Below, piece after piece: positions 6,008-48,705 of a stretch of 49,536 nucleotides of DNA (its first letter is position 1; every line of letters starts with the position of its first letter). Location of the stretch: assembly GCA_011682385.1 (NCBI GenBank), contig JAACET010000002.1, forward strand, positions 1 to 49,536. Direction: 5' to 3'. The notes below the pieces were generated by a model. The model was not told the DNA's origin, did no database searches, and saw nothing but the letters and a program-made list of their open reading frames with translations. A program made the position numbers and the translations under genes. Origin of the DNA: Actinomycetota bacterium. Its GTDB lineage: Bacteria > Planctomycetota > Phycisphaerae > JAACET01.

Positions 6008-6050
6008 GGCCTCAGATGTAGGGTTCTAAGTGGAACTGACGGAGCTTGGC

Positions 6051-14105: not shown

Positions 14106-14201
14106 GGATACGTAATGTCAAAGGATTTCGATAGAATCGAAGGGTTTGGTGAAGGCTACACCGCCTCCTCATCAACAGCATAAACAAAAAGGAGTCTTGA
14201 A

Positions 14202-16655: not shown

Positions 16656-16728
16656 GCGGCCAAAAGTCGGGCTAAAATAGGATCGGCTGTCAGGTCGGCG
16701 TTAGCCGTTAAAAACAAGGAGCAGTAGA

Positions 16729-19155: not shown

Positions 19156-19242
19156 GTGTGGCGACCTTGAAGTGCGAGAAACAGGCCGGAGCCTGAGATT
19201 AGTAATTACCACTGGAGTTTAGCAATAACAGGGAGCTGTGAA

Positions 19243-21654
19243 ATGAAGGTACCCGACAGAACAGTAAAGATATTGGCGGCAACAATAAGTGTGATGCTTT
19301 TAACACCGGGTTTTGCGCTGGGTGTTAACCTTATTAACAATGGCAGCTTCGAGCGAGGAGACTACGACAAGCTGCCGACTGGTTGGCAGCATATTTCCTG
19401 GATAGGAGGCAAGCGGTTCGAGGAAGGGAAGTTCGACGTCGGGCTCAGCCCGGACGTCAATGCCGGCTGCGGAAAGAAGTGCCTCAAGATCACTGGAAGC
19501 CAGATCAGCGAAAAAGGCAAGGAGATGTGCCGGGCGGGCGTGCAGAGCCGTTCGTTCACCTGGGCGCCAGACATGAAGTACAAGATAAGATTCTTCTACA
19601 AAACGGATGTCAAGAGGTTGCAGTATGGCTATGCACCGGCATACATAGCCGTCCGTGGCAATGTCGGTGCTGAATGGTCAGAGAAGTGGCTCAAGGATAC
19701 CAAAGGCACCTGGCAGATGATGACGGGCGTCTTTCATCACGTCGGGCCCAGAGAAAAGGGGTCTATTCAGTTGCGCGGCTACGCTGAAGGGGACGTATTA
19801 TTCGACGAGATTATCATTGAGCCGGCCGGAAAGGCCTTGGTCGTCGAGGTGGATGGAAAGAAATATGCGGTTGAAGAGCATGAGGAAAAACATCCGATGG
19901 CGCCACTATCGGATGAGGACCGGAACCGCGGTTATACCGTTTTCAAGAGAAGCGCCCCGGACGGCATATATCCTACCTCGTATCCCGCTCCTGGCGAGAA
20001 GGTCGAGAATATCAGAACGTTTGCCACACCGGGAGAATACGAGCCGGTTGATTTTGCTCTCTATCCGTTGAAGGACCTGAAGCAGGTTCGCGTTGAGGTA
20101 AGCGATCTGGTAGATGAGCAGGGCCAGGTTCTCAGTAAAGATTGTATCGACGTTCGTAGCGTCAAATGCTGGATACAGAAGGTAGCCAGGGGTTATAAGG
20201 TTGTCCCGGAACTGCTGGACAAGACGAACCCGCTTGATTTGAAAGCCAAAGTCCCGCAGCAGTATTGGCTGACGTTTCATGTGCCCTCGGACGCTCCGGC
20301 GGGCAAGTACAAAGGAAAAATAACTATCACTCCGGAGAATGGCCAGAGCAGCAAGATCATGCTGGGGCTGCGGGTACTGCCTTTCACTCTCGCTGAGACA
20401 CCCTATAACGTCGGCTCTTGGGCATGTATATCCGCTATGCCGGGCCCCTTACGTGAGAAAGGTCGTTATCCGTGGGAGGAAATCTCGGTTCGGTTCAAGG
20501 ACATGAAAGAGCATGGAATGAACTGCATGGTCTGGGATTACCTCGACGCCACATTTGATTATAGAATGATGGGAGTTCGCGGTTCAGGCAAACTCGATAT
20601 GGACTTTTCCACGGACAACAAGATTGTTGAAATGTACAAGCAAGCCGGCTTCCGTGGGCCAATTATCGTTGATTTCTCCAAGTTAGTAACCCATTTGGCC
20701 ATTTTTACCAACATGGATTTCCCCAGCTCTTATTACCGAGCCGGCAATAGAGGCTCTATGTGTCAGCCACCCGTGGACAAGACGCCGCCTGAATTCATAG
20801 AAGCCTACAAGGAAAGCATAAGACAGATTTACAGAAACGCCAAAGAGAACGACTGGCCCGAGCTTATCTGGCATATTAATGATGAGCCGGCCTATCAGGG
20901 AATGGAGGTCATAAAGACGGCTGCGGCGCAGTATAGGTGGGCGAAGGAAGCTGTGCCGGAGGTCAGAACATGGTGCGTCCTGAAGTCGAACGATGAAGAC
21001 ATAATAAGACTCTTTTCTCCTTATGTTGACATATTAACCAACTATATCAGTAGCGAAGAAGACTATCTCTTGACCAAGAAGCTGCTGGCCGAAGGCGTTT
21101 ACAAGGAAAGGTGGGGATACATAGGTCCCGGAAATGTGGAGACTAACGCTTACGAGAGTTGCAGATTGTCCTCGGGATTCAAGTTCAAGAGAACCGACAT
21201 GACGGGTATGTTCTTTTGGTGCTACGGCTTTATGGGACAACAAGACGGCAAGGGCGGGAATTTGGGCATAAAAAATGGCAAGTGGGATGAATATGTTGAT
21301 ATCCCAGGTAAACACATTGCCTTTAGCTACCGTTCGCCCAAGGATCCTCTTGAGGTCGTTCCCACGCTGGCCTGGGAAGGTGTACGTGAGGGAATAGACG
21401 ATGTGAAATACATTGTTACGCTTGAGGGCTTGATCGGGCAGGCCAAAGCCAGCGGCAGCAAGGAGGCAAGAGACGAGGCACTTGCTGCGGAACGTATGCT
21501 CAAGGATATGTTGGCAACCATTCCCTGGGGTGTGGCAGATATTGACTGGTGGACGGCTGCGCCCGTGGAACCTTTTTCTAACGAGCAGATGAGTAAATAC
21601 CGTTGGCAGGTCGCCCTGGAAATCATGAAGCTGACTGAACTTTTATGTAATTGA
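19243..21654 (+). CDS. Paralogue 4: secreted CBM-like jelly-roll plus GH123/DUF4091-like core
   Basis: RBS GGGAG precedes the start, and the signal peptide ends in ...TPGFALGVN. The core motif is WHINDEPAYQG. The termini are near-identical to copy 2 at the nucleotide level. Confidence 0.7.
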   Translation: MKVPDRTVKILAATISVMLLTPGFALGVNLINNGSFERGDYDKLPTGWQHISWIGGKRFEEGKFDVGLSPDVNAGCGKKCLKITGSQISEKGKEMCRAGVQSRSFTWAPDMKYKIRFFYKTDVKRLQYGYAPAYIAVRGNVGAEWSEKWLKDTKGTWQMMTGVFHHVGPREKGSIQLRGYAEGDVLFDEIIIEPAGKALVVEVDGKKYAVEEHEEKHPMAPLSDEDRNRGYTVFKRSAPDGIYPTSYPAPGEKVENIRTFATPGEYEPVDFALYPLKDLKQVRVEVSDLVDEQGQVLSKDCIDVRSVKCWIQKVARGYKVVPELLDKTNPLDLKAKVPQQYWLTFHVPSDAPAGKYKGKITITPENGQSSKIMLGLRVLPFTLAETPYNVGSWACISAMPGPLREKGRYPWEEISVRFKDMKEHGMNCMVWDYLDATFDYRMMGVRGSGKLDMDFSTDNKIVEMYKQAGFRGPIIVDFSKLVTHLAIFTNMDFPSSYYRAGNRGSMCQPPVDKTPPEFIEAYKESIRQIYRNAKENDWPELIWHINDEPAYQGMEVIKTAAAQYRWAKEAVPEVRTWCVLKSNDEDIIRLFSPYVDILTNYISSEEDYLLTKKLLAEGVYKERWGYIGPGNVETNAYESCRLSSGFKFKRTDMTGMFFWCYGFMGQQDGKGGNLGIKNGKWDEYVDIPGKHIAFSYRSPKDPLEVVPTLAWEGVREGIDDVKYIVTLEGLIGQAKASGSKEARDEALAAERMLKDMLATIPWGVADIDWWTAAPVEPFSNEQMSKYRWQVALEIMKLTELLCN

Positions 21655-21698: not shown

Positions 21699-22841
21699 AT
21701 GAGATCCAAAGAACGAGTCCTCCGAATCTTCAGGGGAGAATCCGTAGACAGGCTAGCATGTTTCGAGCAGACGATAGCCTGCTCCGTGGCTTCGGACATT
21801 CTTGGCAGGCCGGCGCTAACCAGCGGCAGCTCGCTGGAGTATCACGAGGCCCGCGCCTGGTGGGAAGGTGAGGAAGCTCACGATGCCTTCAAGCTTCAGG
21901 TCCTCAAAGACAATCTTGAACTTTCCGAAGAACTCGGGTTTGACATGGTGCGTCCCAGATTATCGGTTTTAGAATCTAAGCCGAGCTGCCGTATCAATGA
22001 ATATACTTTCGGTTTTGGCAATTCCCAGCACGGTACATTTTTCACCATGAGTTTTGATCCAAATACTCAAATTTGGGGAATGGTCAAAAAACCAGTGCAA
22101 TGCTCTAACCCATATTCTGTTGTCCATCGTATGCAAAGAATTCTTGAACATCTGACTGACGAAACTACTGATTCGAATTTTTCAGCCTTGGATTGGCTGG
22201 TGGGCAAAGTTGGTGATCAAAAAGCTGTTCTTTGCTCAACCGGTGAAATATCGATTCCTATCGACCAGGAATGGCTAATCGCTTGTGCTGACGATCCCGG
22301 AATTGTGGAACGCTACTTGGATTGCATTGTTGAGATATCTCTGCGTAAGTTGCCGTTCGTCAAGAAACACGGGGCCGACGTAATATGGGCGGGGGGGCTA
22401 ATTGGTGGCAGCGATGGGCCGGTGTACAGCCCCGAGATATTCAAACATCTTCTTTTGCCTCGCTTGAAGAGGATCGTTACGAAGTGTCACGAACTAGGGC
22501 TATTCTACGTGTATCGTACCGACGGCAATATATGGTCCATCGCTGAGAAACTCCTGGGCGAGTCAGGCATAGACGGCTATGGAGTGAGCGATATCGACGC
22601 GGGCATGGACATCGGCGACGTCAGAAAACGTTTCCCAAAGCTGGTATTGTGTGGCAACGTCAACAATAAGACTCTCCAGCTCGGAACCGTTGAACAGGTC
22701 AAGGCGGAAACCAGGGCCTGCGTAGACAAGGCACTTGGAGGCGGGCACATCTTTGGCTCGTCTAATTCCATTATTCACGGAACGCCCGCTGACAACGTCA
22801 TAGCCATGTTCGAAACCGCCAGGGAATACGGAAGGTATTAA
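21699..22841 (+). CDS. Uroporphyrinogen decarboxylase (URO-D)-like family protein, cytoplasmic
   Basis: N-terminal MRSKERVLRIFRGESVDRL is typical of the family. The C-terminal end is LCGNVNN...GTVEQVKAETRACVDKALGGGHIFGSSNSIIHGTPADNVIAMFETAREYG. No signal peptide. Confidence 0.7.
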   Translation: MRSKERVLRIFRGESVDRLACFEQTIACSVASDILGRPALTSGSSLEYHEARAWWEGEEAHDAFKLQVLKDNLELSEELGFDMVRPRLSVLESKPSCRINEYTFGFGNSQHGTFFTMSFDPNTQIWGMVKKPVQCSNPYSVVHRMQRILEHLTDETTDSNFSALDWLVGKVGDQKAVLCSTGEISIPIDQEWLIACADDPGIVERYLDCIVEISLRKLPFVKKHGADVIWAGGLIGGSDGPVYSPEIFKHLLLPRLKRIVTKCHELGLFYVYRTDGNIWSIAEKLLGESGIDGYGVSDIDAGMDIGDVRKRFPKLVLCGNVNNKTLQLGTVEQVKAETRACVDKALGGGHIFGSSNSIIHGTPADNVIAMFETAREYGRY

Positions 22842-22844
22842 GCA

Positions 22845-24257
22845 ATGAGCAAAAGCAGCACACGGACACTCTTTGTAGATGACGCTGACACCGAAAGCAT
22901 GCGCAATTTACATCGCATTATTCACCCGGCCAAGAAGTATGAGGGAAATCCCGTTGTGGCCGCCGAACAGAAATGGGAGGGCAAAGAGTTACTGCTCGGC
23001 GGCACGGTCCGGAAGGAAGGCGAGATTCACCGTATGTGGTACCAAAGCAATCTCAACGGAACCTACCTGGACCTATATGCAGAAAGCAATGACGGCATTG
23101 GCTGGACCAAACCGTGTCTTGGCAAATATGAAGATTTTGAGGGAAGCCTTGAGAACAACATTTACATGAGCCGGATGGCCTTTCGGTCAGACAAGCGATC
23201 GCCGGCTTCTGTCAAGCAAGACCATAATCAGAATGTCCTTTATACTCCGCATATGGGCCAGGGCAAAACGTACACAATGCTGTCGTATGATTATGGGCGG
23301 TCAGGCTATGGGCCTTACGATGGATATTACCTTGCCTTTTCAGATGACGGTGTGAATTGGACTGACGGTCCCACAGAGCCGGTGATTCCCGGCTATGCCG
23401 ATGTGGGATGGTTTATATTCGACGAAAAAGACCAAGTATTCCGGGGCATAGTAAAATCCTTCATAAATATCCGAGGATACTCTCGACGATCCCTACTCTG
23501 GACCCAGAGCGCGGATGGCTTCAACTGGACCCTCCCTCGCCCGGCCTTCATACCCGACCTGGAAGACGATCGCTGGGCTGAAGGTCGAGCTGGCTGCTTT
23601 ACGCAATACTATGGGATGCCAATCGAACGCTATGAATCGGTCATCCTCGGATTTCTTCAGGTTTTCAGGTGTACCAACGGACACACATCTTCCGATGGTA
23701 CAATCGACGTGCAACTCACTGCCAGCCGAGACGGCAAAAACTGGCAACGTGTGGGCGATCGTCGCACCATTGTGGAGCGAGGTGAATATGGCAGCTGGGA
23801 CTGGGGGCTTATTGAACCGGGCAACGCTCTGGTCGTGGATGGCGACCAAGTTAGAATATATTATACTGGTTACAATTCCCTCCACGGCCAATGGACTCCG
23901 GATCCGCAGGGCAAGAAGCTTGCTATCGGAATGGCAAGCTGGCCGAGGGATCGTTTCGTTGGTATGAGGGCTGGTTCGAACGGCGGGGAACTAGTAGTTC
24001 GTTCAAATAACATCGGCGATGAATTACATATCAATGCAAATGCTGCCAACGGTTCCTTGGCCGTCGAACTTGCAGACCAGACTGGCAGGCCGATCAAAGG
24101 TTTTGAAGCATCAGAATGTAAGCTGCTTTGTCGCGACGGACTTGACCACACTGTAGCTTGGCAAAGTAAACCATCGACAAAACCATTCAAAGGCAAGTGT
24201 ATACAAATCAAACTGAAGCTCACCTCGGCTGAAGTCTTCTCGCTGTGGTGGACATAA
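22845..24257 (+). CDS. Cytoplasmic beta-propeller glycoside-hydrolase-like protein (GH43/GH32/DUF377 clan-like)
   Basis: No signal peptide. LFVDDADTESMRNLHRIIHPAKKYEGNPVV...WEGK...RMWYQS...SNDGIGWTKP, plus repeated DG.NW blades (SDDGVNWTDG, SADGFNWT, SRDGKNWQR). It shares this architecture with 33248..34639. Confidence 0.45.
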   Translation: MSKSSTRTLFVDDADTESMRNLHRIIHPAKKYEGNPVVAAEQKWEGKELLLGGTVRKEGEIHRMWYQSNLNGTYLDLYAESNDGIGWTKPCLGKYEDFEGSLENNIYMSRMAFRSDKRSPASVKQDHNQNVLYTPHMGQGKTYTMLSYDYGRSGYGPYDGYYLAFSDDGVNWTDGPTEPVIPGYADVGWFIFDEKDQVFRGIVKSFINIRGYSRRSLLWTQSADGFNWTLPRPAFIPDLEDDRWAEGRAGCFTQYYGMPIERYESVILGFLQVFRCTNGHTSSDGTIDVQLTASRDGKNWQRVGDRRTIVERGEYGSWDWGLIEPGNALVVDGDQVRIYYTGYNSLHGQWTPDPQGKKLAIGMASWPRDRFVGMRAGSNGGELVVRSNNIGDELHINANAANGSLAVELADQTGRPIKGFEASECKLLCRDGLDHTVAWQSKPSTKPFKGKCIQIKLKLTSAEVFSLWWT

Positions 24258-24269
24258 AAGGAATTGAAT

Positions 24270-25178
24270 ATGGTCGCAGAAAAAAACAAGCTGGGTGTTG
24301 GCGTTATTGTACCAGTCATAACGCCACTTGCGAGTGATGGAGATATCGATCAGCAAGGCCTTGAACGTGTGATCAGTCATTGCATGGCTGCCGGCGTGCA
24401 CGGAATACTCATCTTGGGCAGTGCAGGCGAGGGCATCTGCTTCCGGTCGAGGCAAAGGCAGAGAATTATCAATGCAGCAAAGCGCGTAACGGAAAATCAT
24501 ATTCCCCTATATGTCGGCGTGTTTGATGCAAGTACGAGCTTGGTGAGGGAAAAAATCAAATCTGCCGAAGGAAACGGCGCTGATGCCGTCGTGGTAACGC
24601 CCCACTACTATCTTCGATCACGCAACCAAGATGAGATTGTGCGGCATATGGAAATATGTGCTGCTAACGCCACCGTGCCGGTGTTGGCGTACAATAATGA
24701 GGGAACAGTGCACGTGAACATCGCAGCCCAGACCTTCAAAAAGATAATGGCAATAGAGAACGTGATAGGGCTCAAGGAAAGCACTCAGGATTGGAAGCAG
24801 TTTGAGTCAGAGCTTGCACTGCGGGGAAACACTGGTTTCAAAGTTATTGCGGGAGGGCAGTCCATTCTTGGGATGGCCATGCTGGCTGGGGCTGACGGCT
24901 GCATGTCCGGGGTAGCCAATTACGCGCCGAACCTCGTTGTTGAGTTATACGATGCGGCAAGAAAACAAGACGCTAAAAAGGTTTTGATGCTCCAGAGCAA
25001 AGTTATGAGGCTTGACGAGGCGACCCATGCCGGCGACTTCTTTCTGGCTGGCATCAAGTACGCTTGCTCGCTGCTTGGGCTGTGCCACGACTATTTGTCC
25101 GAGCCCTTTGAACGCCTTACGAACCCTCAGAAGGAAGTTGTTAGGATCGCCTTGCAGCAAGAAGGACTGATCAAGTGA
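24270..25178 (+). CDS. DHDPS/N-acetylneuraminate-lyase family class I aldolase
   Basis: AAAGGAA RBS, then ATG 24270 (the listed start 24264 is a TTG). Motifs are VPVITPL...GILILGSAGEG, VVTPHYY and the Schiff-base lysine context VIGLKEST. Confidence 0.8.
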   Translation: MVAEKNKLGVGVIVPVITPLASDGDIDQQGLERVISHCMAAGVHGILILGSAGEGICFRSRQRQRIINAAKRVTENHIPLYVGVFDASTSLVREKIKSAEGNGADAVVVTPHYYLRSRNQDEIVRHMEICAANATVPVLAYNNEGTVHVNIAAQTFKKIMAIENVIGLKESTQDWKQFESELALRGNTGFKVIAGGQSILGMAMLAGADGCMSGVANYAPNLVVELYDAARKQDAKKVLMLQSKVMRLDEATHAGDFFLAGIKYACSLLGLCHDYLSEPFERLTNPQKEVVRIALQQEGLIK

Positions 25179-25208
25179 GAGACCTGCATTTGTGAGCATA
25201 GGAACATC

Positions 25209-27548
25209 ATGAAAAAGCGTCATTCTGAGAGACGTGTCATTGTGAGACGATATGACCTGGTTGTCGTCGGCGGCGGCCTGGCGGGTGTCTGCGCAGCCAT
25301 TGCTACCGCTCGGCTCGGAGTCAAAACTGCGCTGATTCAGGATCGTCCTGTCTTGGGTGGAAATTCCTCTAGCGAAATCCGCGTAAACGTGGGAGGTGCC
25401 AATGACTGCAACGGCTGGGCCCGCGAGACCGGTATAATTGAAGAGCTAATTCTGGAAGACCGCTGCCGCAACCATGATCGCGTCCAAAACGGCGCTATCA
25501 ACTCCGTATGGGATATGGTCCTGTACGACTGGGTTACCAGAGAGCAAAACCTAGACCTCTATCTAGACACCCACGTGTCCTCCGTGGAAAAGAAGGCAGA
25601 TAAGATTGAGGCAGTTACGGGATTACAAACCGGCAGCGAACGAAACATCAGATTCCAATCGCCGCTGTTTGTGGACGCAACCGGAGACGGCACTGTAGGA
25701 GCATTAGCTGGGGCTCAGTTTCGTCACGGCCGGGAAAGTCGTGCGGAGTTTGACGAATCGCTGGCGCCCAAGAAGGCTGATGGGCAAACGCAAGGCTCTA
25801 CTCTTCTGTTCCGTGCCAGAGACACAGGTAAGCCAGCCCCATTCACGCCGCCAGACTGGGCTGAAAAATACCCGACAGAGAAGTCATTCTGCGGCAGGAA
25901 TCACGAAAAATTCGGGCCCAAGGAATATGCAGGTTACTGGTGGATCGAGGTGGGTTCGCCCTTCCACACCATAGAGCAGAACGATGAGATCCGCCACGAA
26001 ATCCTGCGACACGTTCTTGGCGTGTGGGATCACATAAAGAATCATGGAGATCACGACGCGGAAAACTTGGCCATTGACTGGATCGGAATGGTTCCCGGCA
26101 AACGTGAAAGCCGTAGACTCGTCGGCGACTACATATTAACACAGAACGATCTGCTACAGAACACACCTTTTCCTGACCGTGTCGCCTACGGAGGCTGGTT
26201 TATCGATCTGCACACCATAGGCGGCATACTGGAGAAGTCACATCCTCCTCTGCCGAAGGATCGCCACCCCATGGTCAGCGACGATGTAATCGTGAGGACA
26301 TACAACATCCCCCTTAGGTCATTGTATTCCAAAAATGTTTCGAACTTGTTCTTGGCTGGGCGGGATATCTCGGTGAGCAGCTGCGCGTTCGGCTCAACCC
26401 GCCTCATGCTGACCTGTGCCACGACGGGGCAAGCTGTCGGAACCGCCGCATACGTCGCCAAAAGGCACCGCTGCTCTTGCCGTGAAGTGGCGAACAAGTA
26501 CATCAAGGAAGTTCAGCAGCTTCTAGTAAAGAATGACGCCCTCGTCCTGGATATGCCCAACTCTGACCCAAAGGATCTCGCAAGATCCGCCAAGGTCACG
26601 GCCAGTTCAACTGCCCGGCTGAGATTGGAAATGCCGTCTGCTAAGAAAGCATCCAAAAGCGATGAAACCATACCTCCGTGGATCGGTGATCGGCGTTCCG
26701 TCTCGACAGACAGAATGGTCCTGGACACACCCAAGGGCCAGATTTTCCCCGTCTCTGCAGATCGGCTGAAAACGCTCTCGCTGTATGTGATATCGGAGTT
26801 CCAGAAAGACACAGAACTGACTGTAGAGCTTGCCAGTGTCAAGGACATATGGAGCTTCGTGGTCCCAACACGCACAAACAGCGTTCGGGCCAAGGCCACT
26901 ATACCAGCCTTCCATAGAGGCTGGGTGAAGTTCGACTTCAACATGAACATCGAGCCTGGCCTTTTCCAGTTATGCTTGCCTCGCAAAAAGGGACTGAGCG
27001 TGGCGTGCGCAGAGTCGTCCGTCCCCGGTGTATGCGCCGCGTGGAAACAGTCCAAGTGGACGCGATGGGACGGAGGATTGAAGGTAACCATCGCAATGCG
27101 ACTTGATCCGGTTTGTTATCCCTTCGAAGCAAACAACGTTATTAGCGGAACCGCCCGACCTGAACGCTGGACAAATCTGTGGATGAGCGACCCACAGAAA
27201 AACTTGCCCCAGTCGCTGACACTGCAATGGGGTGAGCCGAAAGAATTCGACACGGCGTATATAACCTTTGACACCTTCCTTCACTACGATCCGACTTATC
27301 TGCCTCCGTTCTGGAAGGCGAAGGAGTGCGTGAAGAATTACCGTCTGGAGGCAAGGGTAAATAAGAAATGGAAGCCTTTGGCCACAGTGAAAGATAACTA
27401 TCAGCGGCGCCGGGTGCATCGCTTCGCCAATGTTCGGGCGGATCGGCTCCGCCTGACCATATCAGCTACTAATGGCGATCCCTCCGCCCGAATTTACGAA
27501 ATGCGGGTTTACTGCGAGAAACGGATAACTATAAAGGACGGCTGCTAG
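25209..27548 (+). CDS. FAD-dependent oxidoreductase with C-terminal discoidin/galactose-binding-like domain
   Basis: Rossmann motif YDLVVVGGGLAGVCAAIATARLGVKTALIQDRPVLGGN. The C-terminus ...RADRLRLTISATNGDPSARIYEMRVY is typical of F5/8 type C domains. No signal peptide. Confidence 0.75.
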   Translation: MKKRHSERRVIVRRYDLVVVGGGLAGVCAAIATARLGVKTALIQDRPVLGGNSSSEIRVNVGGANDCNGWARETGIIEELILEDRCRNHDRVQNGAINSVWDMVLYDWVTREQNLDLYLDTHVSSVEKKADKIEAVTGLQTGSERNIRFQSPLFVDATGDGTVGALAGAQFRHGRESRAEFDESLAPKKADGQTQGSTLLFRARDTGKPAPFTPPDWAEKYPTEKSFCGRNHEKFGPKEYAGYWWIEVGSPFHTIEQNDEIRHEILRHVLGVWDHIKNHGDHDAENLAIDWIGMVPGKRESRRLVGDYILTQNDLLQNTPFPDRVAYGGWFIDLHTIGGILEKSHPPLPKDRHPMVSDDVIVRTYNIPLRSLYSKNVSNLFLAGRDISVSSCAFGSTRLMLTCATTGQAVGTAAYVAKRHRCSCREVANKYIKEVQQLLVKNDALVLDMPNSDPKDLARSAKVTASSTARLRLEMPSAKKASKSDETIPPWIGDRRSVSTDRMVLDTPKGQIFPVSADRLKTLSLYVISEFQKDTELTVELASVKDIWSFVVPTRTNSVRAKATIPAFHRGWVKFDFNMNIEPGLFQLCLPRKKGLSVACAESSVPGVCAAWKQSKWTRWDGGLKVTIAMRLDPVCYPFEANNVISGTARPERWTNLWMSDPQKNLPQSLTLQWGEPKEFDTAYITFDTFLHYDPTYLPPFWKAKECVKNYRLEARVNKKWKPLATVKDNYQRRRVHRFANVRADRLRLTISATNGDPSARIYEMRVYCEKRITIKDGC

Positions 27549-27587
27549 CGCGGCATAAAAACAGACGCCTAGCAATGAGGACTCTTA

Positions 27588-29117
27588 GTGCATAGAATAA
27601 CCAACCTTCCAGATGTTCGCATAGCTTTAGTTGGGGTCAGCCGTGATTGCTTCCCGACCGAATTAACTCGTTCACGCCTAGGGCAGCTTGCCAAGGAATG
27701 TCGAAAGAAGGGCCTGACGGTCGTCGTCGCTAAGAATATTATCGAGAATGAAAGTGATACAGTTTCTGTTCTCGGCGAATTGCGAGACAGAAGTGTAAAT
27801 GCAGCCGTCGTTTATCTGGGCAACTTTGGGCCAGAGGGACCGTTATCGGTATTTGCGAAGGAGTTTGATGGTCCGGTCATGGCTTGTGCAGCTGCTGAGG
27901 AAACCAGGGACTCACTTCTTAATAACCGTGGTGATGCTCTTTGTGGTTTGTTGAATGCTTCATATAACTTTGGTTTGCGTAACTCTCGTGTCTATATTCC
28001 GTCGATGCCTGTTGGTCAGGCAAATCATCTCGCTGAGTGCATAGCTAACTATGAAGCGGTGTCACGTATTGTACTTGGTATATCTGGACTGAAGATCATT
28101 TCATTCGGACCCAGACCGCATGATTTCTATGCCTGTAATGCACCAATTGGTCCATTGTATGACTTGGGTATAGAGGTCATGGAGAACTCTGAACTTGATC
28201 TGTTACAAATGTATCAGCGCCTAGATTGTGAAGATCCGGAAGTTAAGCGCATCGAGCTTGAAATGAAAAATGAGCTGGGCGGGGCCAATCCTTATCCCGA
28301 ACTTCTGCCAAAGCTTGCCAAGTTCGAATACAGCCTTCTGTGCTTTGCCGAAGAGAATCTGGGTTCTCGCGATTTTGCTGTTTTTGCTAATAAATGTTGG
28401 CCTGCATTTCAAAAAGCATTTGGGTTTATGCCTTGTTATGTTAATAGTCGGCTTGCCACTCAAGGGATGCCCGTTGCCTGCGAGGTGGACATTTATGGGG
28501 CGTTGAGTGAATATTTGTGCTGCTTAGCCACAAAGCTGCCCTCTACCTTACTGGATATCAATAATACTGTTCCTTCGGATCTAATTCCCGCCAACATAAA
28601 CCTGAAGGGAGCTGGGCAGGAAGATCTTTTCATGGGCTATCATTGTGGTAATACTCCTTCCTGCTGCATGAAGAATTTCAAGTTGACGTACCAGCAATGT
28701 CTTCATGGTTTGATTGAGGATCCCCACAGCGAACCAGACATCACTCGTGGCACACTAGAGGGACAACTATCACCGGGGCCGATAACGTTGTTTCGTGTTC
28801 AAGGGGACACTCAAGGCAACCTAGCAGCTTATGTCGCTCAAGGCGATATTCTTGATATAGACCCATGTAGCTATGGTAGTATTGGCGTAGTCTCTGTAGC
28901 GGACTTTGGCAGATTCTACCGCCATGTGTTAATCGCTAGGCACTTCCCCCATCATACCGCTGTTGGTTTTAAGCACTGCGGCGACACTCTTTTCGACGCG
29001 ATACGCTTAATAGGTATTGACAACATCATGACCCCTTTGCCTGTCAGGACAAGATATCCAGGAGAAAATCCGTTTGATCAGAACTGTTCTAATATCACGA
29101 AGAAACATCAAGAATAG
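27588..29117 (+). CDS. L-fucose/L-arabinose isomerase family-like protein
   Basis: 509 aa with a GTG start. The N-terminal VRIALVGVSRDCFP...VVYLGNFGPEG and the central GYHCGNTP resemble FucI-like isomerases. The assignment is from memory of the family pattern only. Confidence 0.5.
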   Translation: MHRITNLPDVRIALVGVSRDCFPTELTRSRLGQLAKECRKKGLTVVVAKNIIENESDTVSVLGELRDRSVNAAVVYLGNFGPEGPLSVFAKEFDGPVMACAAAEETRDSLLNNRGDALCGLLNASYNFGLRNSRVYIPSMPVGQANHLAECIANYEAVSRIVLGISGLKIISFGPRPHDFYACNAPIGPLYDLGIEVMENSELDLLQMYQRLDCEDPEVKRIELEMKNELGGANPYPELLPKLAKFEYSLLCFAEENLGSRDFAVFANKCWPAFQKAFGFMPCYVNSRLATQGMPVACEVDIYGALSEYLCCLATKLPSTLLDINNTVPSDLIPANINLKGAGQEDLFMGYHCGNTPSCCMKNFKLTYQQCLHGLIEDPHSEPDITRGTLEGQLSPGPITLFRVQGDTQGNLAAYVAQGDILDIDPCSYGSIGVVSVADFGRFYRHVLIARHFPHHTAVGFKHCGDTLFDAIRLIGIDNIMTPLPVRTRYPGENPFDQNCSNITKKHQE

Positions 29118-29128
29118 AGGTTCTTAGC

Positions 29129-29965
29129 ATGGCATCATATTCGGCGGAAATAATTCAAAGAATACAGAAGAAGGCCCAAGAATTGAGAAAAGACATTATC
29201 AGTATGATCGCCAGGGCTGGATCCGGACATCCGGGCGGATCACTCTCGGCAATTGACATCATTGCCTGTCTTTACTATCAGCACATGCAGATTCGCCCGC
29301 AGGAACCAGGCTGGGACCATCGTGACAGGTTTGTTCTTTCAAAGGGACACTGCTGCCCCGCACTGTATTCGGTACTAGCCGACCTGGGATACTTTCCTCG
29401 ACATGAGCTAAAACATCTACGCAAGGTCGGTAGCAAACTTCAAGGACACCCTGACATGCACAAAACCCCCGGGGTGGACATGACCACCGGATCACTCGGG
29501 CAAGGGCTGTCTGTCGGCCTGGGTATGGCCTTGGGCGCAACAGTGCAAGCTAGAAAATTTGGCGTTTATGTAATGCTGGGCTGCGGAGAGATCAACGAAG
29601 GGCAGGTGTGGGAAGCTGCCATGGCCGCAGCTCACTTCAAGGCGGATAACCTGACAGCTATTCTGGATTATAACGGCCTGCAGATCGACGGCACAAACGA
29701 TGAAGTTATGTCCTTGGGGGATGTGGCTGGTAAATGGAAGGCTTTTGGCTGGAACGTGCTGGAAATCGATGGGCACAATATCCCAGCCATCCTATCCGCT
29801 TTGGAGGCCGCCGGAAACACCAGTGGCCGTCCCAGTATTCTAATTGCAAAAACCATCAAAGGTAAAGGTGTGTCGTTTATGGAAGACCGCTTTGATTGGC
29901 ACGGGCAACGTATCACAGAAGAGCAGGAGTCGTTGGCTTTGAGAGAATTACAACAGGAGGTTTAG
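29129..29965 (+). CDS. Transketolase, N-terminal (ThDP-binding) subunit of a split enzyme
   Basis: Motifs are GSGHPGGSLS, GHCCPALY, GSLGQGLSVGLGMA and GCGEINEGQVWEAAMAAAHFKADNLTAILDYNGLQIDG. Confidence 0.9.
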   Translation: MASYSAEIIQRIQKKAQELRKDIISMIARAGSGHPGGSLSAIDIIACLYYQHMQIRPQEPGWDHRDRFVLSKGHCCPALYSVLADLGYFPRHELKHLRKVGSKLQGHPDMHKTPGVDMTTGSLGQGLSVGLGMALGATVQARKFGVYVMLGCGEINEGQVWEAAMAAAHFKADNLTAILDYNGLQIDGTNDEVMSLGDVAGKWKAFGWNVLEIDGHNIPAILSALEAAGNTSGRPSILIAKTIKGKGVSFMEDRFDWHGQRITEEQESLALRELQQEV

Positions 29966-29970
29966 AATAA

Positions 29971-30912
29971 ATGGCAACAGCACGCGCAATCCGGGATGCC
30001 TTTGCCGAATCCTTGGTCGAGCTGGGCAAGGTCAATAAGAAAGTGGTAGTGTTGGATGCGGATCTGGCACACTGTAGCAGAACGTCGTGGTTTGCGAAAG
30101 AATACCCCGAGCGATTCTTCAACGCCGGAATCGCAGAACAGAACATGGTAGGCATGGCTGCCGGTCTAGCCACAACCGGCCTGATACCGTTTGCCCACAC
30201 ATTTGGGTTTCTTTTTTCTTCCAGGGCCTTGGATCAGGTAAGAACATCCATTTGCTATCCCAAACTCAATGTCAAGCTGGCCGGCGGCTATTCGGGCCTG
30301 TCCAACCCGCCAGACGGAGCCACACACCATTCAATCTGTGACTTGGCGATCATGAGATCTCTACCGAACATGACAGTTATTTCTGTCTCGGGTGACACGC
30401 AGACCGAGCAGGCCGTCACCGCAGCCGCAGAACACCAGGGCCCGGTATATCTACGCTTGGCCAGAACCGAATGCCCGCTATCCTGCAAGAAACAGGATTT
30501 CAAAATTGGCAGAGCCGTCGAACACTGCAGCTATGGCGACGATGTCGCTATCATAGCAACTGGTTTGGCCCTGGCTAACGCAATTAAGGCTGCTGAATTG
30601 CTTTTGGACAATGGTATCCAGGCAGAAGTAATGGAAATTCATACGCTTAAACCCATTGATTCCCAAGCCATTCTGGACCTTTCGGCTAGGACAAAGGCTG
30701 TCGTTACCGTTGAAGAACACAGTATCATTGGCGGGCTGGGCGGCGCCGTAGCTGAACTGCTGTCCGAAGGTCCATGTGTCCCCCTTGAGAGAGTCGGCAT
30801 CAGAGATACTTTCACTGAATCAGGCACTACTTATGAAGCGTTAATAGAAAAATATGGCCTGGCGCCCAGCGATATTATTGAGGCTGTCGAGCGAGTTTTA
30901 AAGAGAAGATGA
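29971..30912 (+). CDS. Transketolase, C-terminal (pyrimidine-binding plus C-terminal domain) subunit
   Basis: It starts 6 nt after the N-subunit stop. Motifs are FNAGIAEQNMVGMAAGLATTG, DGATHHSICDLAIMRSLPNM and VTVEEHSIIGGLG. Confidence 0.9.
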   Translation: MATARAIRDAFAESLVELGKVNKKVVVLDADLAHCSRTSWFAKEYPERFFNAGIAEQNMVGMAAGLATTGLIPFAHTFGFLFSSRALDQVRTSICYPKLNVKLAGGYSGLSNPPDGATHHSICDLAIMRSLPNMTVISVSGDTQTEQAVTAAAEHQGPVYLRLARTECPLSCKKQDFKIGRAVEHCSYGDDVAIIATGLALANAIKAAELLLDNGIQAEVMEIHTLKPIDSQAILDLSARTKAVVTVEEHSIIGGLGGAVAELLSEGPCVPLERVGIRDTFTESGTTYEALIEKYGLAPSDIIEAVERVLKRR

Positions 30913-31014
30913 GCGGTGTTCCAGATATATACCAGTCGGTTGAGAGTCTTAGCTGAACGAATGTCGTAGCAATAATAACAGATAGTCCGTACATCCAAAA
31001 GGATACCTTCGGCA

Positions 31015-32283
31015 ATGACTTCACGGGAAAGATTCATCGCGACACTAAATCACAGGCAACCAGACCGGGTGTGCGTGGACCTGGGATCTACAACCGTATC
31101 TACTGGAATTTCGGCAAGTACTCTGTCCAAACTTAGAATTGCTGTTCTGGGCGAAAAGGACTATCGGGTTAAGGTGATCGATCCATACCAGATGCTTGGC
31201 CTAATCGACGACAAGCTTCGAGATGCTTTGGGAATTGATGTGGTCGGGGTCTTTGGCAGCAGAACCATGTTTGGGTTCAAAAACACTGACTGGCAGCCTT
31301 TCGAACTCTTCGACGGCACGAGCGTACTGGTACCAGGAGATTTCAATGTGACAAGCAGCGCGAATGGCGATCTGCTGATATATCCGGAAGGTGACATGAC
31401 GGTCCCGCCCAGCGGGCGAATGCCAAAAGGGGGGTTTTATTTCGATGCCATCATCCGTCAACAGCCAATAGACGAGGCGAAATTGGATCCGGCCGATAAT
31501 TGTGAAGAATTCAGCCTACTCAGCGAAGAGGATATTCGGGGATTTGTCGACCAGGCGGAAAAGCAGGAAACGCAGACCAGTTGCGGCGTGATTATTTCCC
31601 TGCCGGGAACTGCCATAGGAGACATTGCCTTGATCCCGGCTCCTTATCTAAAACATCCCAAGGGAATCCGTGATGTCGAAGAATGGTATGTTTCTACTGT
31701 CACTCGAAAGGACTATGTACACGCTGTTTTTTCAGAGCAGACAAGAATTGCTGTCCAGAACATAAAACACCTCGGAAATGCCATCGGCAGCAGTGCACAG
31801 GCTGCTTTTGTGTGTGGAACCGATTTCGGCACACAACGGTCGCTGTTTATTTCGAAAGATACTTATCGAGAACTATACAGCCCCTATTATAAACAAATCA
31901 ATCGCGCCATTCATGATCACACCAACTGGAAAACTTTTAAGCATTCTTGCGGCAGTATCTTCGAACTCATCCCCGACATGATCGAAGACGGCTTCGATAT
32001 ACTTAATCCAGTCCAGTGTTCAGCGTCTAATATGGATCCGAAGACCCTTAAAAGAGAATTCGGCGATCAAATAGTCTTCTGGGGCGGCGGCGTGGATACC
32101 CAGAAGACACTACCGTTTGGAACGCCACAAGAAGTATACAAAGAGGTGCGCGAACGGATCGAAATCTTTAATGACGGTGGCGGGTTCGTCTTCAATCCCA
32201 TTCACAACATACAAGCCAATACCCCGGTCCAGAACATTATAGCTATGTTCAAGGCTATTCGAGATAGTGATAAATCGCCCTGA
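31015..32283 (+). CDS. URO-D-like family protein (H-S-C-G motif present)
   Basis: N-terminal MTSRERFIATLNHRQPDRV. FKHSCGS lies at nt ~31939-31956. The C-terminal end is FWGGGVDTQKTLPFGTPQEVYKEVRERIEIFNDGGGFVFNPIHNIQANTPVQNIIAMFKAIRD. Confidence 0.7.
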   Translation: MTSRERFIATLNHRQPDRVCVDLGSTTVSTGISASTLSKLRIAVLGEKDYRVKVIDPYQMLGLIDDKLRDALGIDVVGVFGSRTMFGFKNTDWQPFELFDGTSVLVPGDFNVTSSANGDLLIYPEGDMTVPPSGRMPKGGFYFDAIIRQQPIDEAKLDPADNCEEFSLLSEEDIRGFVDQAEKQETQTSCGVIISLPGTAIGDIALIPAPYLKHPKGIRDVEEWYVSTVTRKDYVHAVFSEQTRIAVQNIKHLGNAIGSSAQAAFVCGTDFGTQRSLFISKDTYRELYSPYYKQINRAIHDHTNWKTFKHSCGSIFELIPDMIEDGFDILNPVQCSASNMDPKTLKREFGDQIVFWGGGVDTQKTLPFGTPQEVYKEVRERIEIFNDGGGFVFNPIHNIQANTPVQNIIAMFKAIRDSDKSP

Positions 32284-32358
32284 GTTGACGATAGCGGATT
32301 GCGCCATGGCGCAGTGAGTGTACTAAGAGCAAGTGTATGCAAAAGAAAGGAAATTCAA

Positions 32359-33048
32359 ATGGAATGTAGTACCAAAGACATCATGAAAATGATTGACCAC
32401 TCCCTGCTTTTCCCCTGGTTTGACGCTGAAAAGCTGGAGGAAGGCTGTAAGATTGCTGTTGAATGTGACGTAGCGAGTGTCTGCATTATGCCCTTTTATG
32501 TGAAACGGTGTGCTGAAATCCTGGCTGGCAGCACGGTCAAGATCAGCACAACGGTGGGCTTTCCTCATGGTTGCAACACAACATCCACCAAGCTGGCCGA
32601 AGCAAAACAGGCCCTTGACGATGGTGGCGAGGAACTGGACATGGTCGCGAATTACAGCAAAGCACTCAGCGGCGACTGGGACTACGTGCGCGACGACATC
32701 AAAGCTGTGGTTGATGTCGCCCACGAGCGCGGCCAGAAAGTAAAGGTCATTTTCGAGAATTGCTACCTGACCGATGATCACAAAAAGAAAATGTGCGAGA
32801 TCTGTGGCGAAGTTCGCGCCGACTGGGTCAAGACATCCACAGGCTACGGCCGTAGCGGAGCCACAAATGAGGACCTTGCACTCATGCGCAAATACTGTCC
32901 AGAACATGTGGGCGTAAAGTCCGCCGGCGCAGAGCCGATTGGCGTGGATGAGCTGATCGAGGTAAGAGCCATAGGCGTCAGCCGTATAGGCGCGTACAAC
33001 ATGACGCCCATCATACGTGAACAATGCAAGTTGCGATTCGGGCAGTAG
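32359..33048 (+). CDS. deoC: Deoxyribose-phosphate aldolase (DeoC/LacD-type class I aldolase)
   Basis: AAAGGAA RBS, then ATG 32359. Motifs are MIDHSLL, VASVCIMPFYV, VGFPHG, ELDMV, VKVIFE and the Schiff-base lysine context DWVKTSTGYG. Confidence 0.85.
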   Translation: MECSTKDIMKMIDHSLLFPWFDAEKLEEGCKIAVECDVASVCIMPFYVKRCAEILAGSTVKISTTVGFPHGCNTTSTKLAEAKQALDDGGEELDMVANYSKALSGDWDYVRDDIKAVVDVAHERGQKVKVIFENCYLTDDHKKKMCEICGEVRADWVKTSTGYGRSGATNEDLALMRKYCPEHVGVKSAGAEPIGVDELIEVRAIGVSRIGAYNMTPIIREQCKLRFGQ

Positions 33049-33247
33049 TCACTCAGTGGAACCGCTTAGGTTAGCATCTGCCGAACCTCGGCCCTCAGCC
33101 ATTGCCCAAGCTAGATGACACAGAGAAATTCGCACACCATCTGGACCAAAGATGGGGAGCAGACCAAATGTTCTTGAGCCTTTTGGAAAAAGCGAAGAAT
33201 CTCGCCTGAGATCGCTTTGAAGCTCGATTCTACGGAGATATCTGGTT

Positions 33248-34639
33248 ATGAAAACGCTGCTTTTCTTCGACGATTGGTACCTGGACAAGCGAGTTAATTT
33301 CCAGCGGCACGTCTGTCAACCTGAACTTGTCGCCGAGTCGATACTGACCGAGCCCGGCAAAACATCGGGCGGCGGATATATGACGGCAATCTATGACGCC
33401 AAAGAAAACATCTACAAGCTATGGTTCAACGACTTTGGAGATATCTTTGTTCAGAGTCTGGTAATGAGATATGCCGAAAGTGAGGATGGCTACAATTGGC
33501 AGCCCAAAAGCGTAGAGGGGGTCAAGGATCGATTCGTCGATATGGTCGAAGGCCTTGTTTTCAGCGGGGAGCATAAGCTCTCGGAAGCAATGGTCTGGCG
33601 CGATCCGCTGGAAAAAGACCCGGCAAGGCGTTTCAAAATGCCTCACGTGGTTGCCGAAAGATACGATCCGATGCCTGTTGTTGAATGCCGATGGGCTTAC
33701 TCCGGCGACGGTATCCATTGGACCGTTGATCGGGAAAGGCCGTGGCTAGGGCATATTTCCGATACGGCCAACGTGCTTTTGCGTAATCCGCTGACAGGCA
33801 GGATTCAGATGACGATGCGCAAGCGTTGGGGTGACAGACGAGTCGCGCTAATCCAAAGCGACGATTTCGTTCACTGGACCCAGCCGCAGACAATAATCCA
33901 TCCGGACCCTCTCGATCCGGGCTGCGTGCACTTTTACGGAATGCCGCAGTTCTATTACGAGGGTTACTTTATAGGTTTTCTTTGGTTGATGCACACGGTG
34001 GCCGATGAAATCGGCCCGGCCAAGAATGCAGGCAAGGTGAACTGCCAGCTGACATACTCCTATGACGGATTAAACTGGAACAGAAGCCTTCGCGAGCCTT
34101 TTGTTCCCAATCGGGCGGAAGGTGAGTTTGGTGGCGGCTGTGTATATCCGAGCTCACTCATAGAAGCTCCGGATGGGACTCTGCGCGTATACTCGCCAGG
34201 TACGCTGTACGAACATCAGGGTTCTGACAAGGGCGAAAAAATCATTGACTGTGCTGCCCTTTCGTATCGCCTACGTAAGGATGGCTTTGTTAAACTCAAG
34301 GCCGACTTGGCCCGTGGACGCCTGATAACAAAAAGACTTAAGCTGAACGATCCGGCGATGTCCTTGAACGTTTGCGCTCCTTCCGGCCAGGTAAGCGTCC
34401 AAATCTCCGACATGGAAGGCAAGCCGCTACAGGGCTACAGGTTCGAAGATTGCCAGGAGTTTTCCGGCGACGATGTTGAATGGAAGCCTCGCTGGCGGGA
34501 CCATAAGGACCTGTCAGGAGCCATGGATGCTGAGGAAGGGGTCCGCATTGAAGTTATCGCGGATTCCGCCGAGCTGTACGCTATACATGTTGATTGTGGT
34601 CTTTGCATGAACGAGGGACCGATTGATAACATCTCGTAG
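33248..34639 (+). CDS. Cytoplasmic beta-propeller glycoside-hydrolase-like protein (second member of the pair)
   Basis: GGAG RBS. No signal peptide. LLFFDDWYLDKRVNFQRHV...YKLWFN...SEDGYNWQPK, SGDGIHWTVD and SYDGLNWNRS give the same blade pattern and layout as 22845..24257. Confidence 0.45.
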   Translation: MKTLLFFDDWYLDKRVNFQRHVCQPELVAESILTEPGKTSGGGYMTAIYDAKENIYKLWFNDFGDIFVQSLVMRYAESEDGYNWQPKSVEGVKDRFVDMVEGLVFSGEHKLSEAMVWRDPLEKDPARRFKMPHVVAERYDPMPVVECRWAYSGDGIHWTVDRERPWLGHISDTANVLLRNPLTGRIQMTMRKRWGDRRVALIQSDDFVHWTQPQTIIHPDPLDPGCVHFYGMPQFYYEGYFIGFLWLMHTVADEIGPAKNAGKVNCQLTYSYDGLNWNRSLREPFVPNRAEGEFGGGCVYPSSLIEAPDGTLRVYSPGTLYEHQGSDKGEKIIDCAALSYRLRKDGFVKLKADLARGRLITKRLKLNDPAMSLNVCAPSGQVSVQISDMEGKPLQGYRFEDCQEFSGDDVEWKPRWRDHKDLSGAMDAEEGVRIEVIADSAELYAIHVDCGLCMNEGPIDNIS

Positions 34640-34684
34640 CGAGTGTTGCATTGTCCCAATGTTCAGAAACATCCGAGGTAAGCA

Positions 34685-35809
34685 ATGAAAGTCACTGATA
34701 GAGGCACAGTTTTTGAGGCCCAAATCAACACAAACCGGCAGAGCTGCGCATTTCCTTCAATATGTGTTCTACCCAGTGGTCGGTGGATAAGCAGCTTTCG
34801 CGCAGCACCCACGAAGATCGCAACTACTGGCCAGCACGTATTGATCAGCTACTCTGACAATGAAGGGCGCAGCTGGTCGGAGCCGGTTTCTCCTTTTAGC
34901 CCCGCCAAAGTCAACGACAGGCCCGGATTGTTCCGTGCAGCGTGCCTAACGACTCTGGGGGAAAGCAGTTTATTGGCTAGTATACTTTGGGTTGATCATT
35001 CCGACCCGGCAATCCCCTTCTTCAATGAGGAAACACAGGGGCTGCTCGACTGTCGAATCTTCTTTTCTAGCTCGCACGACGGTGGCGAGACATGGTCCGA
35101 GCCGATAATCATGGATACCTCACCATTCAATGTGCCGACACCCATCACGGGGCCAACTTTGCTCTTGTCAGATGGTCGGCTGGCTTGCCAGTTTGAGCTA
35201 AATAAGCCTTATTACGATACGTCAATCTGGCGACATTCCTCGGTGATGATGTTTTCAGCAGATGGAGGAATAACTTGGCCGGAATATGCAGTTACCAGCA
35301 ACGATCCGGAAAATCGAATTTTCTACTGGGATCAAAGGCTTGGCGTTCTTGCTGACGGGTCCATCCTGGATATGTTCTGGACATATGACAATCGAGCAGG
35401 CCAATACTTGAACATTCATGCCAAACGCTCGACAGATAACGGACATAGCTGGTCCGACACGTGGGATACAGGCGTTCCCGGCCAGCCGGCCCAGCCGGTT
35501 TCAACTCCGGACGCCGGCATTGCCATGGTCTATGTGGATAGAACCGACCAACCAGTCATCAAGGTACGCAAAAGCAGCGATAGGGGCAGCACATGGCCCG
35601 AGGAGACGGAAGCCGTCATACACAAACCATCGCTGGTTTCTCAGACGCGGAAGAAGGGAGCGATGCAGGATGCCTGGGAAGAGATGGGTAAATTCTCGAT
35701 TGGGCTGCCGACCACTGCCTTGCTACCAAACGGCAACGTCATAGTGGTCTTCTACGCCGGACCCGAAACTGATCGAACGGACATTCACTGGGCCTGTGTA
35801 AACCTCTAG
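34685..35809 (+). CDS. BNR/Asp-box repeat six-bladed-propeller protein (sialidase-superfamily-like)
   Basis: Four canonical Asp-boxes (SHDGGETW, SADGGITW, STDNGHSW, SSDRGSTW) plus one degenerate (SDNEGRSW), spaced ~55-70 aa apart. No signal peptide. No clear (F/Y)RIP motif; AFPSI occupies the expected place. Confidence 0.7.
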   Translation: MKVTDRGTVFEAQINTNRQSCAFPSICVLPSGRWISSFRAAPTKIATTGQHVLISYSDNEGRSWSEPVSPFSPAKVNDRPGLFRAACLTTLGESSLLASILWVDHSDPAIPFFNEETQGLLDCRIFFSSSHDGGETWSEPIIMDTSPFNVPTPITGPTLLLSDGRLACQFELNKPYYDTSIWRHSSVMMFSADGGITWPEYAVTSNDPENRIFYWDQRLGVLADGSILDMFWTYDNRAGQYLNIHAKRSTDNGHSWSDTWDTGVPGQPAQPVSTPDAGIAMVYVDRTDQPVIKVRKSSDRGSTWPEETEAVIHKPSLVSQTRKKGAMQDAWEEMGKFSIGLPTTALLPNGNVIVVFYAGPETDRTDIHWACVNL

Positions 35810-48679: not shown

Positions 48680-48705
48680 TTTGGACACGAACTCTTTGAC
48701 CGCTA

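Follow-up and report, generated by a model that had tools for sequence, protein, structure and literature searches.

The seven-gene block and its isomerase

The stretch of DNA analysed here (the window) is the entire 49.5-kb contig C132 of a metagenome-assembled genome (MAG) from marine sediment, which comprises 2.35 Mb in 185 contigs and is 89% complete. A pseudopilin-like DUF1559 gene, protein tails of PEP-CTERM type and best matches labelled Phycisphaerae or Planctomycetota point, as a lead and no firm placement, to a host that is probably Planctomycetota/Phycisphaerae-like. The subject is a block of genes at positions 24270–33048, on which an earlier sequence-only reading had proposed a non-canonical route for an unusual monosaccharide. 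The block consists of seven consecutive open reading frames (ORFs), all on the forward strand and separated by gaps of 30, 39, 11, 5, 102 and 75 nt. In order, they encode a DHDPS-family aldolase (24270–25178; PF00701, E 1.8e-43), a FAD_oxidored protein (25209–27548; PF12831, E 1.7e-88), an isomerase of the FucI/AraA superfamily (27588–29117; Fucose_iso_C alone, E 3.2e-18), the N subunit of a split transketolase (TK-N, 29129–29965; Transketolase_N, E 3.9e-58) and its C subunit (TK-C, 29971–30912; Transket_pyr and Transketolase_C), a URO-D-like protein of 419 aa, here called URO-D2 (31015–32283; PF01208, E 1.9e-18, matching the C-terminal half of the profile only), and DeoC (TIGR00126; starting at 32299 or 32359 and ending at 33048). 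The earlier reading had described eight tightly packed genes on one strand; the packing and the common strand are as described, and the number is seven. No signal-peptide-like N-terminus is found on any of the seven proteins. A promoter and terminator scan gave fewer sites than shuffled sequence did, with no terminator-like sites between the genes of the block; this is consistent with co-transcription, and is no proof of it. An Rfam scan of the window gave zero matches.

The isomerase has 509 residues, with Fucose_iso_C as its sole Pfam domain (66.2 bits). Its N-terminal 351 residues have no Pfam match even at E 1, and both AraA_N (PF02610) and the AraA signature are absent. It has at least 8,000 homologues (all 8,000 candidates that were scored matched), the best of which are 59–67% identical and come from Phycisphaerae, Armatimonadota and Planctomycetota.

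The neighbourhoods of its orthologues (51–67% identity) were analysed by counting homologues of this genome's own AraB and AraD within 6 kb. One or both are present at 48 of 91 loci; of the remainder, 28 are not long enough for a judgement, and 15 are unlinked although sequence is available on either side. When only the informative loci are considered, the linkage is therefore 48 out of 63. Immediately after the closest assembled orthologue (L014, 65–66% identical) come an FGGY kinase of 563 aa and a protein of 230 aa with the class II aldolase fold, which pass the ribulokinase and AraD models respectively, and the same two partner genes are found in a second assembled context (L018). The linked genes fit the models for ribulokinase and AraD and not those for FucK and FucA. 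In a phylogenetic tree the window isomerase is sister to the araBD-linked L014, with a Shimodaira–Hasegawa-like approximate likelihood ratio (SH-aLRT) support of 94.

The structure predicted by AlphaFold2 (AF2) has a predicted local distance difference test score (pLDDT) of 89.6 and a predicted template modelling score (pTM) of 0.92. It superimposes best on the AraA structures of Geobacillus kaustophilus, Escherichia coli and Thermotoga maritima, with template modelling (TM) scores of 0.74–0.78 over about 510 columns, that is, over its full length. FucI structures rank second, with TM scores of 0.69 and 0.60, the latter being normalised by target length. Candidate metal ligands, suggested by the alignment, are E299/D301, D323, H352 and H455/H456, all of which are conserved.

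A classical L-fucose isomerase was considered and rejected: Fucose_iso_N1 and Fucose_iso_N2 are absent, the protein has 509 residues rather than about 590, its TM scores to FucI are lower, and there is no linkage to fuc genes. The earlier reading, which had called the protein FucI-like, is upheld on this point: it is not a classical L-fucose isomerase, and there are no fuc genes in the locus. Because the orthologues fill the araA slot, because the AF2 model is AraA-like, and because this genome has araB and araD but no canonical AraA, the protein is probably an L-arabinose isomerase of a non-canonical FucI/AraA-superfamily type, an assignment that comes from context and predicted fold. A literature search found nothing on non-orthologous AraA proteins.

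A kinase elsewhere in the genome

The sequence-only reading had recognised no sugar kinase in the window, and a Pfam scan of its 35 ORFs confirms this: no kinase domains are present. The sole ROK-family protein (44920–46137) has an N-terminal helix-turn-helix and is repressor-like. The same reading had concluded that the phosphorylation logic was unexplained, and here the rest of the genome gives a different answer. A stand-alone araB–araD pair lies on another contig (C177:9972–12391), between unrelated flanking genes and with no adjoining isomerase. Both genes are well above the cut-offs of their models (692.6 against 428 for AraB, and 333.9 against 257 for AraD). No AraA_N match and no second copy of the window isomerase were found in this 89%-complete genome, which does have a ribulose-phosphate 3-epimerase.

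With a kinase and an epimerase on C177 and a probable L-arabinose isomerase in the window, the parts are those of a conventional, kinase-dependent route ending in xylulose 5-phosphate, an ordinary transketolase substrate. The route would run from L-arabinose to L-ribulose by the window isomerase, to L-ribulose 5-phosphate by the C177 AraB, and to D-xylulose 5-phosphate by the C177 AraD. The accessory split transketolase adjacent to the isomerase would then pass the xylulose 5-phosphate to central metabolism.

The split transketolase

The genome contains five transketolase loci: split pairs on C132 (the window), C93, C23 (continuing on C62) and C176, and a full-length tkt of 663 aa on C32. Dxs-like and PDH-E1-like genes are also present. 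A housekeeping role for the window's pair is rejected on the strength of these five loci, and the earlier view of it as an accessory enzyme stands, since there are four split copies in addition to the full-length tkt.

TK-N retains the SGHPGG, SKGH and QGHPD motifs and the Asn of DYNG. In the motif that binds the thiamine diphosphate (ThDP) cofactor, G-D-G is replaced by G-C-G (Cys152, codon TGC), so that the metal-binding Asp has become Cys. This replacement is common to the window TK-N and two paralogues only (C93:21797–22624 and C23:401–1240). The C176 and C32 enzymes have the Asp, as do all 29 of the same-phylum relatives and over 75 TK-N sequences of other phyla; more than 100 other sequences were compared. 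In the C23 copy the GCG motif goes together with a pocket that is canonical in other respects, which makes the Cys look more like a trait of the lineage, in a functional enzyme, than like the mark of a new substrate. If the arabinose route favoured below holds, an Asp to Cys change in a ThDP metal site poses a concrete and cheap biochemical question, namely whether it reflects metal preference or adaptation to sulfidic sediment.

TK-C was compared with human TKT (4kxu). The two phosphate-binding arginines (R318 and R474) are kept, as is Asp424, which recognises the C4 hydroxyl; Ser345 is replaced by Cys35, His416 by Tyr107, and GEDG by PPDG. Tyr107 is found in 100 of the 120 best homologues, which form a Tyr-type subfamily, and Cys35 in one of the 120, the window protein alone. 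The paralogues on C93, C23 and C32 retain both the Ser and the His. It should be noted that DXS binds the phosphate of glyceraldehyde 3-phosphate with a Tyr at this His position, and Tyr107 is therefore no argument against a phosphorylated partner. The closest homologue of TK-C is about 70% identical, and the best in 400 genomes of the same phylum is 52% identical. The five Tyr-type loci available have no neighbours in common with the window.

The aldolases

The DHDPS-type aldolase scores below every NCBIfam equivalog cut-off, with 138.9 against 206 for dapA (TIGR00674), and 72.5 against 382 and 90 against 281 for the two nanA models. The Schiff-base Lys (GLKES) is kept; GTTGE is replaced by GSAGE, and YN(V/I)PxR by YNNEGT, with loss of the Arg138 of DapA. 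A true DapA with all of the DapA hallmarks is encoded on C64. The window protein is accordingly rejected as a DapA, for its sub-threshold score and the missing GTTGE and Arg138 motifs, and as a NanA, for the two scores given above. It could instead be a catabolic, pyruvate-type class I aldolase acting on some 2-keto-3-deoxy sugar acid.

DeoC passes its model (TIGR00126, 192.7 against a cut-off of 117.3). In comparison with the DERA structure 5dbu, the catalytic Asp (DMV) and the two Lys residues (VKTSTG and GVKS) are kept, and the loop past the last Lys is SAGAEP, as against ASGGAR in the reference. It is the second copy in the genome, its paralogue on C175 being 36% identical, and would be an extra deoxyribose-phosphate-type aldolase.

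The FAD and URO-D-like proteins

The FAD protein had been described as an oxidoreductase with a discoidin tail. Its PF12831 FAD domain is clear; as for the tail, the C-terminus gives only a sub-threshold, galactose-binding-like match to F5_F8_type_C_2 (E 4.5e-4, 21.2 bits against a cut-off of 27.8). The family is multi-copy in the phylum, the best full-length relatives being 43–47% identical, and no solved relative was found beyond the dinucleotide-binding motif. A literature search gave nothing on PF12831, nor on URO-D-like genes in glycan loci.

There are 17 URO-D-like genes in the genome. In the URO-D2 family, H310-x-C312 and H397 are invariant, and the second Cys of an H-x-C...C motif is absent. 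Its members are 63–78% identical and occur in Phycisphaerae, Planctomycetota and Armatimonadota in variable gene contexts. Matches to MtaA and CmuA models are weak (TIGR01463, 49.2 against a cut-off of 235). With its zinc-type H-x-C motif kept, URO-D2 may be a corrinoid-linked methyltransferase. The window's other URO-D-like protein (URO-D-like protein 1, 21699–22841, forward strand; PF01208, E 1.9e-22, again the C-terminal half of the profile only) lacks this motif. No corrinoid or MttB-like partners lie inside the window.

Elsewhere in the genome, a row on C24 (767–4632) consists of a BNR_2 protein, an MttB-like methyltransferase and a URO-D-like protein, the last being the closest paralogue of URO-D2 (35% identical), and on C69 (3671–5262) a 210-aa corrinoid protein adjoins a URO-D-like fragment. 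This row and this pair hint at corrinoid-dependent methyl transfer tied to glycan genes.

The surrounding locus

The block is not self-contained. It lies within a same-strand run that extends from a LacI-family regulator at its head (6030–7106, forward strand; LacI and Peripla_BP_3 domains) to the end of a BNR_2 protein at 35809. The regulator is followed, on the same strand, by two PEP-CTERM-like proteins, a DUF1559 pseudopilin-like protein and a CBM9-like protein, and then by four secreted GH123-like paralogues (12141–21654, forward strand). These match Glyco_hydro_123_N_2 or GH123_cat, have signal-peptide-like N-termini, and are 45–83% identical to one another (n = 4). They are the extracellular front end of the locus. 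From URO-D-like protein 1 onwards (21699–35809) there are eleven genes without signal peptides, and the seven-gene block forms the middle of them.

Next to the block on either side is a cytoplasmic propeller protein. The upstream one (22845–24257, forward strand, 470 aa) belongs to a family without a Pfam entry. Its AF2 model (pLDDT 92.4) is a 5-bladed β-propeller with a β-sandwich. Structure comparison ranks GH130 phosphorylases first (Z 26), followed by a GalNAc deacetylase (Z 25.5), GH137 (Z 24.7) and GH43/62 (Z 22). The nearest named atlas clusters are BNR_2/sialidase-like (score 0.92). The family has 5,921 representative homologues, many of which have signal peptides or are part of fusion proteins longer than 1,000 aa. 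The downstream paralogue (33248–34639, forward strand, 463 aa) aligns within the same family and is 24% identical to the first. On the evidence of the predicted fold, the two are probably cytoplasmic glycan-trimming enzymes, for which arabinofuranosidase-type and phosphorylase-type activities both fit. The run ends with the BNR_2 protein (34685–35809, forward strand; PF13088, E 1.5e-18), which has the sialidase fold, no signal peptide, and weak matches to exo-α-sialidases.

Some further observations concern the window as a whole. No recognisable sugar transporter was found across its approximately 37 kb of glycan-processing genes. A class-V aminotransferase (41519–42797, reverse strand) and a Zn-dependent dehydrogenase (47512–48679, forward strand) are each broken into two overlapping or abutting ORFs, which may be due to frameshift or assembly error. 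The 3' end of the window (47984–49535) is repeated on contig C28 (156–1707) with approximately 90–94% protein identity, and a 62%-identical copy of the window's last ORF (C62:425–1267) comes after the C-terminal part of the C23/C62 transketolase. At the other end, the window's first ORF begins with 31 residues that recur unchanged at one end of contig C181.

Conservation of the block and related clusters

The combination of isomerase, transketolase, URO-D-like protein and DeoC was sought at other loci. It is found in none of the 11 assembled contexts of isomerase orthologues, in none of 80 metagenome isomerase loci and in none of 80 transketolase loci in genome contigs; nor was it found by way of TK-C in 400 genomes of the same phylum, or by way of the FAD protein in 200.

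Two other clusters in the genome are kinase-free and contain a split transketolase. One (C93:4207–30263) is associated with a LacI regulator, and encodes LamG, CBM4_9, two GFO, DHDPS, AP_endonuc_2, LacI, ADH and M81/MlrC proteins, followed by TK-N, TK-C, a racemase-like protein, AP_endonuc_2, two FucI-like isomerases and UxaC. Its row of TK-N, TK-C, racemase-like protein and AP_endonuc_2 recurs in a Chloroflexi MAG (L066). The other, on C176, has a URO-D-like protein, an AKR, TK-N, TK-C, a creatininase and UPF0261. The repeated occurrence in this genome of kinase-free clusters that bring together transketolases, isomerases, aldolases and URO-D-like proteins would, if the arabinose route favoured below holds, mark uncharacterised sugar chemistry in anaerobic glycan degraders.

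Interpretation

The reading that we favour, and to which we give about an even chance, is an L-arabinose route that is conventional although its genes are dispersed, and that supplies the accessory transketolase; it would be set among enzymes acting on further products of the one glycan. The seven genes would be the cytoplasmic back end of a glycan-utilisation locus of about 30 kb with LacI at its head (6030–35809), and the block would serve as a funnel for several breakdown products rather than as a single new linear pathway. The sequence-only reading had joined three C–C-cleaving enzymes and an isomerase into one route for an unusual sugar. This finds no support in gene context: the combination was found at no other locus, so that nothing links the three enzymes to a single linear pathway.

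Several observations weigh against the arabinose route. The araB–araD pair lies outside the locus, so that the link spans contigs of an incomplete MAG, and no transaldolase (PF00923) was found in this genome. A transketolase is near the isomerase at one of 80 orthologue loci, so that arabinose loci do not as a rule conserve this adjacency. The window isomerase has a long terminal branch (0.63; the median is 0.2), which could reflect changed specificity, and we know of no assayed member of its clade. The pocket of the transketolase (Cys35, Tyr107 and PPDG) and its GCG cofactor motif deviate from those of canonical xylulose 5-phosphate transketolases. Finally, the roles offered here for the DHDPS-type aldolase and for DeoC are guesses, as are those for the FAD and URO-D-like proteins, to which no reaction can be assigned.

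Some of these same features speak for a kinase-free transketolase route, the idea of the sequence-only reading. The isomerase would turn an unusual sugar into a ketose, and this would be cleaved directly by the divergent split transketolase with glyceraldehyde 3-phosphate as acceptor, so that phosphate enters with the acceptor; DeoC and the DHDPS-type aldolase would take the shortened aldehydes. The window has no kinase domains; in TK-C, two of the four residues that contact phosphate are changed, as is the sequence beside the stereo-reading Asp, Cys35 is nearly unique, and the closest homologue is only about 70% identical; the isomerase branch is long; and C93 and C176 provide two further kinase-free transketolase clusters. 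Ketoses of the kind that an L-arabinose-type isomerase produces are a difficulty here: L-ribulose and D-tagatose are 3S,4S, the donors required by transketolases are 3S,4R, and TK-C retains the C4-reading Asp. Both phosphate-binding arginines are also kept, and the Tyr at the His position is as in DXS. There is a precedent in the sulfoquinovose transketolase (sulfo-TK) pathway, in which SqwGH acts together with isomerases, no kinase is used, and phosphate enters via glyceraldehyde 3-phosphate (PMC11659671). For the window, the best score to a sulfoquinovose isomerase (SftI) model is 53.8, against a cut-off of 700. With orthologues of the isomerase overwhelmingly araBD-linked and the gene combination found at no other locus, we consider the kinase-free route unlikely, while giving it a real share of the probability. 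A more elaborate version, which we think distinctly unlikely, is a kinase-independent two-carbon clipping of an unusual sugar (methylated or deoxy, for example), in which the isomerase was recruited from an araB–araD setting to work with the Cys-motif transketolase, the propellers release the sugar, the URO-D-like proteins are corrinoid-linked O-demethylases, and DeoC and the DHDPS-type aldolase finish the fragments. If true, it would be an anaerobic glycan-processing scheme not previously described.

The presence of a BNR_2 protein and a NanA-family aldolase in one run, together with the BNR_2/sialidase-like atlas neighbours of the 470-aa propeller, suggests another possibility. The sialidase-fold and propeller proteins would free a sugar resembling 3-deoxy-D-manno-octulosonic acid (Kdo), 2-keto-3-deoxynononic acid (KDN) or sialic acid; a lyase of the DHDPS/NanA type would split it into pyruvate and an aldose; and the isomerase would turn the aldose into a ketose that reaches the pentose phosphate pathway by the action of a kinase with its gene elsewhere and of the transketolase. 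Kdo aldolase yields D-arabinose, which FucI-type enzymes isomerise. However, the aldolase is far under the NanA cut-offs, the 470-aa protein is 5-bladed and GH130/GH43-like rather than a 6-bladed sialidase, the partner of the isomerase orthologues is AraD, an enzyme with specificity for the L-series pentulose phosphate, and NanK/NanE-type genes and a sialic acid transporter are absent from the window. Such a route is in our judgement improbable. We regard it as slightly less probable still that the seven genes have no common function at all and were brought together by lineage-specific shuffling of widespread accessory genes, each with its own substrate or a part in general metabolism (extra pentose phosphate capacity or nucleoside salvage). 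It is true that the isomerase, URO-D2 and FAD families lie elsewhere in quite different neighbourhoods, that the block as a unit is found nowhere else, and that paralogues of most of its genes are scattered through the genome. Against this, the genes lie close together (3–102 nt apart) on a single strand, downstream of a LacI gene and of secreted glycoside hydrolases, and the C93 cluster repeats the theme of LacI, DHDPS, GFO, AP_endonuc_2, split transketolase and FucI-like isomerase, a repetition that argues for a functional logic.

If the favoured arabinose route is correct, a large and conserved clade of isomerases fills the araA role and merits proper annotation. It would also imply that arguments from a 'missing kinase' on single MAG contigs need to be checked against the whole genome.

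Comparison with known systems

The window resembles the sulfo-TK pathway in that an isomerase gene adjoins a split transketolase and that the cluster lacks a kinase. It differs in that none of its 35 scanned ORFs is a sulfoquinovosidase, a sulfoacetaldehyde reductase or a sulfonate exporter, in the low SftI score given above, and in that its isomerase is of a clade linked to araBD. The D-apiose transketolase pathway, which reportedly (Carter et al. 2018) comprises ApsI, AplK and AptAB and includes its own kinase, is similar in having a dedicated split transketolase in a sugar cluster with an isomerase, and different in that kinase, which has no counterpart in the window; this distinction is drawn from the description of the pathway. 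Membership of either pathway is rejected, as none of the supporting genes are present in the window.

The likeness to sialic acid catabolism lies in the BNR_2 protein and the DHDPS/NanA-family class I aldolase of the same gene run. The differences are that the aldolase fails the NanA models, that there is no NanK, NanE or NagAB and no transporter, and that the BNR protein is cytoplasmic.

The split transketolase itself has the same two-subunit architecture as that of Carboxydothermus hydrogenoformans (PDB 6YAJ/6YAK), the characterised enzyme to which both subunits are nearest, with 6yak as the best PDB match for the N subunit (E 1.3e-100) and an E-value of 3.7e-90 for the C subunit, and it keeps the catalytic His motifs of that enzyme. 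It differs from it in having GCG for GDG, Cys35 for Ser, Tyr107 for His and PPDG for GEDG.

The closest parallel for the isomerase is the araBAD system of L-arabinose catabolism. In numerous MAGs and metagenome contigs, orthologues of the isomerase fill the araA position beside araB and araD, and its model has the three-domain fold and the size of AraA. It is only about 15% identical to the solved AraA structures and lacks AraA_N and the AraA signature, and here, unlike in araBAD, it is unlinked from araB–araD and lies instead 11 nt upstream of a split transketolase.

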